From Candidatus Eiseniibacteriota bacterium (GTDB taxonomy: Bacteria; Eisenbacteria; RBG-16-71-46; CAIMUX01): 64,000 nucleotides of DNA. Numbering within the stretch: position 1 is the stretch's first letter; each line of letters starts with the position of its first letter. A program made the position numbers and the translations under genes. The DNA is taken from assembly GCA_020633975.1 (NCBI GenBank), contig JACKCR010000006.1, positions 267,873 through 331,872 of the forward strand. Direction: 5' to 3'. Of this stretch, positions 13,896 through 22,768 are shown one piece after another. Under the pieces are notes generated by a model. The model did no database searches. It was not told the origin of the DNA and saw only the letters and a program-made list of their open reading frames with translations.

Positions 13896-14969
13896 CTACC
13901 GATATGCGCCCTTCACCTGACCCCACGACACTCGGTCGACCGGCGTAGGATTGCAGCCGCCGTTGAGTTGGCCCAGTGTGCAGAGGGTGAAGAAAAGGCT
14001 CGTCCCGCCACCGCTCGAGTTGCCGTTGAACCCGTCGTTCGGCCCGGCTCCGTCCGGACACCGTCCGATGCAGCTCTCGCCTTCCGACGCGAAACTCCCG
14101 GACCAACCGAGCTGGTCGACCCGGACGTGGAGGTCGGTGAAGAGGTACGCGAGCTGGGTCGTGTCGAGGTCGATCGAAGGCGGCAGCTTCTCGACGACTA
14201 CTCCCGACGGCGGGATGAAGGTCGAGGTCAGGAAGTAGGTCGGCCCCGCACCGAACGTGGCGTACCAGCCGCCGAGGATGATCGCGGCTCCGGTCGGGTT
14301 GTAGAGCTCGATACTGTCGTTCACGAACCGGACGGACGGCGTGGTCGTCCCGAGTTCGTTGATGAGGACGCTCGAACCGAGATCCGGGTTCGGTGCGTCG
14401 TTGCTCGCCCCGAACGTCGAAGTGAGGTCGAGAGTCCAGTAGAGAGCGTTGTCGGTCGGCCCGAGAGGCGGCCCGAGCGCTGCGTCCGGTGCGCGGCAGA
14501 GGGAGACGCCTCCCGAATCGTGCGGCAACGGAGCCCCGCCCACCTGTCCGTAGGCGACGACGTCGCGAGTCAGCTTGAGGTCGTCGATGAGTGCCCCTTC
14601 TCCGCCGATGTCATGGAAGATGTCTCCGAGATCATCGAATGCCAGGTACTCACCGACGGCGATCGTAGTGTCGTCCGGGATGAGAAAGTCACCCAGATCT
14701 CCCGCCAGTTTCCATCCGGTGAGAAGCACGGGCGCAGGGCCGGAGTTGTAGAGTTCCGCGCGCTCGGTTCCCCGGATGACGAGCTCGTTGAGGTAGACCT
14801 CCGCGTAAGCACTCTCCGGGATCGAGAGCACGGTCGCGCCCACGAACACGGCCAGCGACGCCAGCGGTCGAGTGGCCAGCGTGAGCGGGTGGACGGTCGA
14901 TCCGAGCCGTCGGTGGGTTCCTCCTCGGATCGCGGTTCGGGGGCGAGTCGTCGTCGGCTGCAGCATCAT
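13896..14969 (-). CDS. Secreted protein with two lamin-tail (LTD) domains and a short conserved C-terminal motif (357 aa)
   Basis: Real gene is the 3' part of track ORF 13896..17216. ATG ATG at 14969..14964 gives MMLQP...signal peptide ending SIPESAYA. LTD signatures VYLNELVIRGTERAELYNSGPAPVLLTGWKL and VLINELGTTTPSVRFVNDSIELYNPTGAAIILGGWY. Ends RVSWGQVKGAYR. Its start ATG overlaps the stop TGA of the upstream sigma-54 activator gene (ATGA). Confidence 0.7.
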   Translation of the reverse strand: MMLQPTTTRPRTAIRGGTHRRLGSTVHPLTLATRPLASLAVFVGATVLSIPESAYAEVYLNELVIRGTERAELYNSGPAPVLLTGWKLAGDLGDFLIPDDTTIAVGEYLAFDDLGDIFHDIGGEGALIDDLKLTRDVVAYGQVGGAPLPHDSGGVSLCRAPDAALGPPLGPTDNALYWTLDLTSTFGASNDAPNPDLGSSVLINELGTTTPSVRFVNDSIELYNPTGAAIILGGWYATFGAGPTYFLTSTFIPPSGVVVEKLPPSIDLDTTQLAYLFTDLHVRVDQLGWSGSFASEGESCIGRCPDGAGPNDGFNGNSSGGGTSLFFTLCTLGQLNGGCNPTPVDRVSWGQVKGAYR

Positions 14970-22500: not shown

Positions 22501-22768
22501 CGAGCAAGGTGCCGCCGTCGTTTGCGGCTGGCGTGTCAGGGACTACGCCAAGGGTGAACGCGAATGCCGCAGCCGTCGGCACGACGAGGAGCACGGACGC
22601 GCTGAGGAATGCGGACGCGCTGAGGAATGCGGACACGCTGAGGACTACGGACGCCCCGCGCAACACGGATGCACCGAGGAATGCGGGGACGCGTGTGAGA
22701 GGACGACGAACGACTTGGATGAACGAATGGACGCGGTGGTGGGCGAAGGAGCGCGCGTGGAGCCTCAT
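19583..22768 (-). CDS. Secreted 1061-aa protein: duplicated about 230-aa N-domain, each followed by 4-5 Cys-rich about 32-aa repeats (GACC..G.C....EC...GG.Y.G....C.PNPCPQP), and a C-terminal domain ending in the same motif as the LTD protein
   Basis: ATG 22768..22766 with GGAGG 8 nt upstream; long signal peptide containing the SAFLSA repeat. Nine Cys-rich repeats visible in the ORF-track translation. C-terminus ...NPCGAVPIQETSWGKVKALFR, compare LTD ...NPTPVDRVSWGQVKGAYR. Confidence 0.7.
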   Translation of the reverse strand: MRLHARSFAHHRVHSFIQVVRRPLTRVPAFLGASVLRGASVVLSVSAFLSASAFLSASVLLVVPTAAAFAFTLGVVPDTPAANDGGTLLVHAETVLEYTSDNDYCTLGGLTECGNAATRVDENGPVVAHILAAFYPDSGSHLKGIVFGIDYGPTLAVDAWRMCGDFELAEDDWPSPGSGNAVVWFETQTDPLVEVGWLAPYSADGSPGRIELIPHPTQGAYFADDSTPALLDPIAGLGSLGFYTEGSLACPEPPGLCCFEDGSCQLLRQGPCEDANGAWQEGISCDPNPCPQPPVGACCFDDGSCTVSTQSQCDHAFGMYQGDETICEPNPCPQPHGACCFTTGVCEDLGPNECDSAGGNYQGNDTLCEPNPCPQPTEGACCLSLGSCEYIPESTCEIQGGEFLGLGILCAPNPCVQPCEPFALAGRPSTTRPTPPVDPFTGTARSKAATRSAGSRVDPSEPTSLEASANTENRLGPNGGGTLVLHLGPDVAYSQDGLRADCDLGGEVQDCQDIVARTDQESPVLIFAIALFPSESAPRLLGLTFGIDFPDCVQLEDWESCGDFEIADANWPSPGTGTAMTWSTAQTDQAVAVYQFFASGLAAEPGELALAPHPTQGAVFADDSIPSLLDEIAGLGSFGFFRDGITPCPQAQEPIGACCFENGTCRVLTIPECDSAGGEFLGAYVYCAPNPCPQPIVGACCFTDGTCLVRTESQCASNGGNYQGDDTSCSPNPCPQPTGACCIGETCVVLTRAECTASGGTYRGDYRPCDPNPCVEQPGACCLAYGNCIFVTRSECAAQGGFFLHEGTPCYPNPCPTGGGGCPSLLSIEERVARRSQVLEAAEHASVPCAAETGRGSGTVTTREGDATTQCGELAFSADGTYENGYAWQYGGVVAPYYGAFAEGYENALRLVCAIILDLTQVGNDAGQTMDLYVWESAGGQPGAVLGVRTGADPSTIAFWPSLSRHEFGINANCADGGLFAGYWGNWPNAVMGWFVGADLDGYGGCPLTNIAPGIGYPTGWNNVSIVWGPTQAIGIGVELNPCGAVPIQETSWGKVKALFR
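22596..22700. repeat. Imperfect 18-bp tandem repeat (about 5-6 copies, GCGGACGCGCTGAGGAAT-like) within the signal-peptide coding region of the Cys-rich protein gene
   Basis: Direct repeats seen in sequence. On the minus strand they encode SAFLSA SAFLSA SVLL in the h-region. Confidence 0.7.

Follow-up and report, generated by a model that had tools for sequence, protein, structure and literature searches.

Do two otherwise unrelated secreted proteins of a Candidatus Eiseniibacteriota bacterium end in the same short peptide by chance, or does this peptide represent a C-terminal tag? The question arises from a stretch of 64,000 nucleotides (the window; positions 267,873 to 331,872 of the forward strand of contig JACKCR010000006.1, assembly GCA_020633975.1), with a G+C content of approximately 65%, whose best homologues with a named source derive from Candidatus Eisenbacteria metagenome-assembled genomes (MAGs). 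The initial annotation of the window had proposed that the shared terminus, here called the tail, is a second, uncharacterised sorting or recognition tag, distinct from the C-terminal domain (CTD) of type IX secretion systems (T9SS) borne by neighbouring proteins. The tail proves to be a genuine C-terminal tag, modular in build, widely distributed and uncatalogued, and found mostly on exported proteins with signal peptides, and a function in sorting is what we infer for it. Tags of this general kind are known on exported proteins, and the tail differs in architecture from the described classes.

The first of the two carriers is a secreted protein of 357 amino acids with two lamin-tail domains (LTD; Pfam match over two stretches, 1.8e-12), which terminates in ...GGCNPTPVDRVSWGQVKGAYR-stop and is identical to a protein in the public collection (P0270). 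The second, a secreted protein of 1061 amino acids without a family match in Pfam or NCBIfam, is composed of Cys-rich repeats together with three larger modules and terminates in ...LNPCGAVPIQETSWGKVKALFR-stop. Both tails are in place as originally described, and they have in common a Cys at position -10 and a Pro at position -6 relative to the Trp. BLAST finds no similarity between the two proteins once they are stripped of their tails. In the six-frame translation of the entire window, the pattern WG.[VILM]K occurs exactly twice, once in each of these two genes and in each case nine codons ahead of a stop codon. The shared tail of the two proteins is real and not due to chance. It is also, as had been pointed out, too short for a transmembrane anchor, with eight to nine residues after the Trp, an invariant Lys or Arg among them. 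The signal peptides of both proteins have unusually long N-terminal regions; in the orthologues, Sec signal peptides of canonical form align at the same position.

Several further features of the 1061-residue protein are apparent. A Cys-rich repeat of approximately 45 amino acids (GACC..G.C.......C...GG...G....C.PNPC), for which Pfam and NCBIfam hold no model, is present in about nine copies, a module of approximately 170 amino acids occurs twice, and a short 'SAFLSA' tandem repeat lies inside the hydrophobic region of the signal peptide.

The tail is conserved in the relatives of both proteins. The last 242 residues of the 1061-residue protein have 219 homologues, mostly stand-alone signal-peptide proteins of approximately 232 amino acids, and the tail is retained in 118 of the 120 homologues of this last domain among the matches listed. 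Counted over these 118 tails, with the Trp as position 0, both the Trp and the Gly at +1 are invariant (118/118), while Pro is found at -6 in 108, Thr or Ser at -1 in 116, Ile or Val at +3 in 116, Lys at +4 in 116, Leu at +6 in 105 and Tyr or Phe at +7 in 115. Exactly one residue follows position +7 in 82 of the tails and none in 15; a polar or charged final residue is present in 103, most frequently Asn (38), followed by Arg (19), Lys (13) and Glu (11). The LTD protein has 37 homologues, and the tail terminates 27 of the 31 aligned sequences (the window protein and 30 homologues), with the tail Lys replaced by Arg in many of these orthologues. The resulting pattern, Cys(-10)-x3-Pro(-6)-[VT]-x3-[ST]-W-G-x-[IV]-[K>R]-x-L-[YF]-x-COOH, describes a self-contained, transferable module of approximately 20 residues, which is made up of a Cys, a Pro-rich linker and a short segment predicted to be helical; an example of such a peptide, containing both the W and the K, is PVPVEETTWGRIKALYR. 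Synonymous codons vary freely at the conserved residues, with all four GGN codons used at the Gly, for example, and selection therefore acts on the tail peptide rather than on the DNA. The same variation rules out a DNA- or RNA-level element.

The distribution of the tail extends well beyond these two families. A tail profile of 20 positions, derived from 107 tails, was used in an exhaustive search of 1.84 billion cluster representatives and matched 809 clusters (50% identity) at E≤1e-3. The residues conserved in the last-domain family are likewise conserved among these matches. In approximately 140 of the best 149 of the 809 matches the motif is situated 8-12 residues from the C-terminus, and the sequences upstream of it are very diverse. 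When 253 carriers were stripped of their tails, they fell into 39 components without BLAST links to one another. When species-representative genomes totalling 596 Gb were scanned with a degenerate DNA pattern (P-x4-[ST]-W-G-x-[IV]-K-x-L-[YF]-x-stop), at least 118 loci were recovered. Across 810 kb of the listed loci there are 152 terminal and three internal copies of the tail, and the 141 tail open reading frames (ORFs) that passed a coding-frame filter form 58 unlinked components, 35 of which are singletons. Up to four copies occur in a single 8-kb locus, often in tandem arrays of paralogues, and several loci may be found in one MAG, as in CBDVBX01 (L004, L062, L067 and L113) and CAYONG01 (L020, L039 and L068). 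Going by their labels, the matches listed belong to Eisenbacteria/Eiseniibacteriota (approximately 41), Krumholzibacteria (nine), Latescibacteria (eight), "Fibrobacteraceae" (three) and MAGs without a label (approximately 55). One further contig is labelled Udaeobacter and one Gammaproteobacteria; because their tail proteins resemble those of Eisenbacteria or Krumholzibacteria, we suspect that both are mis-binned. The initial annotation had spoken of a tag in this organism; the taxonomic labels of the matches indicate that it is not specific to it and spans several candidate phyla. As the tail is retained in orthologues and paralogues and ends hundreds of unrelated proteins, neither of the two findings that would have spoken against a tag, a lack of further matches and an absence from orthologues, was obtained.

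This distribution bears directly on the possibility that the tail has no dedicated function and is a chance similarity, or a neutral remnant of an ancestral linker or of the end of a 'C.PNPC.P' repeat that was spread by domain shuffling. The tail does often follow a Cys-rich 'PNPC' repeat, in other proteins as well as in the 1061-residue protein, and a Cys is located at -9 to -11 in about half of the tails recovered with the DNA pattern, which is blind to Cys. Against such an origin stand the invariant Trp and Gly, the nearly invariant Lys, Leu and Tyr/Phe, the fixed distance to the stop codon and the varied codons, all maintained across at least 58 unlinked families and several phyla. Approximately 13 chance matches to the DNA pattern would be expected in 596 Gb (our own estimate, which assumes uniform base composition), as opposed to the at least 118 observed, and those among the matches listed all fall in one lineage group. 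A control scan of IMG/VR viral contigs with the same pattern gave only two matches (L122 4347-4394 and L123 214-261), both of which look like genuine tails. The distribution data effectively refute this explanation, to which we assign hardly any probability. The two viral contigs could represent fragments of hosts or could have been misclassified. One of their tail proteins resembles a metallophosphoesterase by eye.

The tail is used side by side with the T9SS-type CTD. A hidden Markov model (HMM) of the CTD, built from 35 FlgD_ig/Por_Secre_tail-type domains of related loci, identified five CTD-bearing ORFs in the window (Table 1) rather than the seven first reported, and two of the five also contain cohesin domains. 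Neither the LTD protein nor the 1061-residue protein has a match to the CTD, with either Pfam or the lineage HMM, in agreement with the initial annotation. Like the T9SS CTD (TIGR04183/PF18962; FlgD_ig-like, PF13860, in these genomes), the tail is a C-terminal tag on Sec-exported proteins of bacteria of the Fibrobacteres-Chlorobi-Bacteroidetes (FCB) group, and the two occur together in these genomes, with the genes for them often adjacent, and share passenger families. CTD proteins adjoin tail genes in 41 of the 118 listed loci. In the last-domain family, P0094 combines the same passenger with a FlgD_ig CTD in place of the tail, and in P0284, P0288, P0289 and P0306 of the LTD family a CTD of approximately 85 amino acids replaces the tail at the same junction, just past the conserved CTLGxLN...C. 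Tail and CTD are interchangeable within these passenger families. The CTD is, however, an Ig-like beta-sandwich of 70-100 amino acids, while the tail consists of a linker and a short helix with a combined length of approximately 20 amino acids and shows no HMM similarity to it.

Signal-peptide-like N-termini were recognised by a crude heuristic in 167 of 196 carriers (at least 150 amino acids, Met start), and most of the exceptions look truncated. The Pfam domains represented among the carriers include LTD, Beta_helix, DUF4440, Cohesin, DUF7450, CHRD, PPC and DUF3344, although most carriers have no recognisable domain at all. Their Cys content is 3-4%, and in the listed loci the tail proteins have a median length of 245 amino acids, as compared to 588 for the CTD proteins.

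The stop codons of these genes are also skewed. TAG is the commonest stop codon of both the tail genes (79/141) and the CTD genes (25/44) in loci L001-L118, while among the other long ORFs of the same loci it is rarer than TGA (141 versus 172). Since the CTD genes show the same excess, it is not a tail-specific trait and may be a trait of secreted-protein genes in these lineages.

The tail is absent from the curated libraries searched. Searches of whole proteins and isolated tails against Pfam-A and NCBIfam gave no match to the tail even at E≤10, no chain in the PDB matched the tail profile at E≤10, and the cluster names of the tail proteins contain no annotation of it. The motif is absent from the literature searched, in which C-terminal tags in these phyla are not discussed. 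Among the known systems closest to the tail are the short tripartite sorting signals exemplified by LPXTG/sortase, PEP-CTERM/exosortase, GlyGly-CTERM/rhombosortase and MYXO-CTERM/myxosortase, with which it shares its small size, extreme C-terminal position, multiple copies and invariant residues. As with the tripartite signals, it is found on unrelated signal-peptide carriers whose homologues may bear other anchors, and the Cys shortly upstream in about half of the tails is reminiscent of the MYXO-CTERM type. Eight attributes of small tripartite C-terminal sorting signals have been set out (Haft, bioRxiv 10.1101/2023.06.07.544157), six of which (attributes 1, 2, 3, 6, 7 and 8) the tail shares. 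It lies near the C-terminus (1, with the Trp 8-12 residues from the end as given above), occurs in many copies per genome (2, with two in the window and several loci per MAG), has at least three invariant residues (3, in W, G, K and P(-6)) and is carried mostly by proteins with a signal peptide (6). Many pairs of its carriers are unrelated outside the signal (7, with the 39 and 58 unlinked components), and they have homologues with a different signal or none (8, with P0094 and the four LTD-family proteins). It lacks a strongly hydrophobic segment of transmembrane length (4), the part after the Trp being only 8-9 residues long and including the invariant Lys/Arg, and a terminal cluster of two to five basic residues (5), the end usually being a single residue.

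These shared attributes, together with the nearly fixed distance to the C-terminus, are the grounds on which the tail might be regarded as a cleaved sorting signal, which a dedicated peptidase or transpeptidase would recognise and remove while linking its passenger to a glycolipid or polymer of the cell surface, in the functional manner of sortase/LPXTG, exosortase/PEP-CTERM or PorU/T9SS-CTD. The tail has neither the membrane-spanning segment nor the Arg cluster of such signals, and it also occurs in internal, tandem and N-proximal positions. The dedicated protease or sortase that the initial annotation suggested might co-occur was not encountered, as no such gene recurs in the neighbourhoods of the tail loci, and these contain no candidate intramembrane protease or sortase. 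The only C39-like peptidase in the window (Table 1) was considered as a tail-processing enzyme and rejected, being absent from the 121 other loci. Cleavage is, on balance, quite unlikely.

The only clear non-terminal copies are those of a family of lipoproteins with DUF4440/SnoaL-like domains (P0126, P0127, P0132, P0150, P0152, P0160, P0190, P0208 and P0218). Its unusual arrangements include two or three tandem tails separated by 20-35 residues, a domain-tail-domain-tail order and a three-fold version of that order, and in one member a copy just past the signal peptide accompanies the copy at the end. It follows that a free C-terminus is not obligatory and that multivalency occurs. Taken together with the exchange of Lys for Arg, these copies point to a non-covalent binding motif and argue against obligatory cleavage or linkage through the Lys. 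A covalent role of the Lys, modelled on the pilin motif or on isopeptide bonds, was rejected in view of the same exchange in many LTD orthologues.

Structure prediction gave the same picture in two unrelated contexts. For the last domain of the 1061-residue protein (120 sequences), AlphaFold2 predicts a beta-sandwich, an extended segment and a terminal helix at residues 234-240 (WGKVKAL) of the 242-residue construct, with a mean confidence score (pLDDT) of 89.9 and a value of approximately 80 for the helix. The LTD protein (31 sequences; mean pLDDT 83.8) is predicted to have two beta-domains, a linker at 342-345 (pLDDT below 50) and a helix at 349-356 (WGQVKGAY; pLDDT approximately 60). In both contexts the tail is therefore modelled as a flexible Pro-rich linker with a tethered two-turn helix outside the passenger fold. 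The Foldseek matches to this protein's last domain, in the case of the 1061-residue protein, were all weak and of CBM-like or jelly-roll type.

A helix of this kind, short, terminal and flexibly linked, would also be compatible with a peripheral membrane or lipopolysaccharide (LPS) anchor, whereby the helix partitions into the outer-membrane interface or the outer leaflet of the inner membrane without a protein receptor. In its combination of W, I/V, L and Y/F with K plus an R at the end, the tail has a composition typical for interfacial peptides; its Lys is replaceable by Arg, and tandem copies would add avidity. The helical hydrophobic moment of the tails is, however, not above that of shuffled tails (mean 0.39 versus 0.34 +/- 0.17, with 36% of the shuffles reaching 0.39), so that plain amphipathicity probably does not explain the conservation of the tail, and the moment lends no support to a generic amphipathic helix. 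Low affinity is expected of 8-9 residues, some of the carriers are already lipoproteins, and the near-invariance of the Trp, the Gly and the basic residue, and almost that of Pro(-6), across unrelated families and phyla is far stricter than known lipid-binding helices need. We therefore regard the membrane anchor as unlikely. The C-terminal helix of MinD has the sequence KGFLKRLFGG. The short terminal helices of MinD, FtsA and PBP5 resemble the tail in combining W/F, I/L and K/R, but their site of action is the cytoplasmic or periplasmic face and their demands on sequence are loose, unlike the invariant residues and exported carriers of the tail. Similarly, the beta-signal of outer-membrane proteins (OMPs) and the motifs of chaperone-usher subunits have an aromatic residue at or beside the C-terminus and a Gly a few residues upstream. 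The tail differs from these in mostly ending in R, N, K or E, in its lack of alternating hydrophobic residues and in its predicted helical form, and for its passengers soluble domains of the beta-sandwich, beta-helix or LTD type are predicted rather than OMP barrels or pilins. Identity with the OMP beta-signal, the T9SS CTD or the dockerin was rejected on the features that define each. For the dockerin, a duplicated Ca-binding loop-helix of approximately 60-70 amino acids (PF00404), the tail gives no Pfam match, is only approximately 20 amino acids long and has no acidic loop repeats.

The tandem arrays of paralogues, with up to four in 8 kb, and the proteins with multiple tails also allow the tail to be viewed as an assembly motif, in which tails would bind each other or a groove in a neighbouring subunit in the manner of donor strands or dockerins and so build a layer, fibre or complex. 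Proteins with cohesin domains are frequent neighbours of the tail genes, and some of them bear tails themselves. The tail has no dockerin features, cohesin modules are not known to bind it, and the passengers are too diverse for a single polymer; this explanation is improbable.

The reading which we favour, with a probability that we place a little short of even, is that the tail is a short linear docking or retention motif that acts after export and is read by a partner in the envelope. Passengers would be exported via Sec, after which the terminal helix would serve as the recognition motif, and a conserved component of the envelope would bind it and retain or position the passenger in the envelope or on the cell surface. 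This component would most likely be a protein receptor, which is favoured because dozens of unrelated families, from several phyla, show virtually no variation in the Trp, the Gly and the basic residue. The tail would then represent a non-covalent docking tag operating in parallel to the covalent T9SS CTD route, and not a cleaved signal of the sortase type. Several observations weigh against a docking motif of this kind. Clustering of the ORFs of the 118 listed loci brought out no receptor, protease or transporter, all tail hosts in the sample are uncultured, and the predicted confidence of the terminal helix is moderate (pLDDT approximately 60-80). The near-fixed distance to the C-terminus in 82 of the 118 last-domain tails could instead reflect recognition of the free carboxylate or processing, and, with its W/Y and K/R composition, the tail would likewise be suited to binding anionic lipid or LPS directly.

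In the window, both tail genes belong to a block of minus-strand genes (Table 1), of which the initial annotation had singled out a PD40 propeller and a sigma-54 activator as associates. The latter association recurs, with related TPR-sigma-54 activators located near tail genes in six to seven loci, whereas the PD40 protein is no recurrent neighbour, with one weak match in 121 loci. The start of the LTD gene overlaps the stop of the activator gene by 4 nt (ATGA), and the two are probably translationally coupled. The order of activator followed by tail-bearing LTD gene is kept in two other Eisenbacteria contigs (L119 6882-10987 and L120 6735-10996), the first of which also has the 4-nt overlap. 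Such a conserved order suggests that some part of the tail secretome, at the least, is controlled through sigma-54. No match to the sigma-54 promoter consensus lies near either tail gene; three matches with one mismatch are situated elsewhere in the window. The activator itself is probably split in the window by a frameshift, which may be genuine or may stem from the assembly, as the span 18254..14966 measures 3289 nt, a length not divisible by three. A TPR ORF of 168 amino acids, which shares 134 nt with the activator ORF in a different frame, would represent its N-terminus. The only recurrent families without tails in the 118 listed loci are the CTD proteins (41), the TPR-sigma-54 activators (6-7) and generic TPR proteins. 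The SpoIIE phosphatase, the PMT-like transferase and other proteins encoded in the window were rejected as partners, as they are not recurrent neighbours.

Table 1. Positions of the tail-bearing genes, their neighbours and the CTD-bearing open reading frames in the 64-kb window.
Feature	Position	Strand	Basis and remarks
LTD gene	13896..14969	minus	357-aa secreted protein, two lamin-tail domains, tail-terminated; ORF and translation
Tail copy 1	13899..13955	minus	C-NPTP-VDRVS-WGQVKGAYR, then TAG stop
Gene of the 1061-aa protein	19583..22768	minus	Secreted, Cys-rich repeats, tail-terminated; ORF and translation
Tail copy 2	19586..19642	minus	C-GAVP-IQETS-WGKVKALFR, then TAG stop
Last globular domain of the 1061-aa protein	19643..20311	minus	Family of mostly stand-alone secreted proteins of ~232 aa
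TPR and sigma-54 enhancer-binding protein	14966..17881	minus	Pfam Sigma54_activat 5.6e-69, TPR_12, HTH_8
TPR ORF, 168 aa	17748..18254	minus	Pfam TPR; tblastn match to N-terminal part of the L120 activator
PD40 beta-propeller	18462..19547 (start approximate)	minus	Pfam PD40 1.4e-09; directly downstream of the gene of the 1061-aa protein
Cohesin-domain protein with T9SS-type CTD	4939..9705 (ORF 4837-9705)	plus	Pfam FlgD_ig 6.6e-10, Por_Secre_tail 3.3e-05, Cohesin; CTD HMM 2.2e-29
Protein with T9SS-type CTD	9858..12773 (ORF 9840-12773)	plus	Pfam FlgD_ig 7.6e-11; CTD HMM 8.6e-25
Cohesin-domain protein with T9SS-type CTD	12828..13766 (ORF 12774-13766)	plus	Pfam Cohesin; CTD HMM 1.2e-07
CTD-bearing ORF	52218-56339		Lineage CTD HMM
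CTD-bearing ORF	59765-60808		Lineage CTD HMM
Secreted protein with C39-like cysteine peptidase domain	26560-28701	plus	TPR repeats; long family-less C-terminal region

It is also possible, although we give it somewhat less than an even chance, that sorting or anchoring signals outside the cytoplasm include a new class, non-tripartite in build and defined by the tail, with a dedicated receptor or export route of its own. Such a class would function in parallel to the T9SS in Eisenbacteria, Krumholzibacteria, Latescibacteria and their relatives, and would mark a large, hitherto unrecognised secretome of small Cys-rich proteins that is partly under the control of TPR-sigma-54 activators. The recognition of LPXTG, PEP-CTERM, GlyGly-CTERM and the T9SS CTD led in each case to a sorting machine and to the prediction of a surface proteome, and the tail has the same genomic signature in a different build, with no membrane-spanning segment. 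It is abundant in phyla known solely from metagenomes, whose envelope biology is essentially unknown, and a simple tail model would allow thousands of "hypothetical" proteins to be annotated as envelope or surface proteins. The tail could furthermore show how didermic bacteria of the FCB group retain or display small proteins that have no T9SS domain.

Elsewhere in the window, the stretch 34273-44784 encodes a [NiFe] hydrogenase cluster, comprising the large subunit (34273-35970), an NrfD-like protein (35972-37162) and the small subunit (38043-39140), along with HypF, a maturation factor (41587-44784). A STAND-type Ser/Thr kinase (Pkinase, NB-ARC/AAA and TPR) is encoded on the minus strand at 48667-52137, and another adjoins tail genes in locus L020 (2056-5457). 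The plus-strand region 57125-59734 of the window shows a match to the Ser/Thr kinase domain only.

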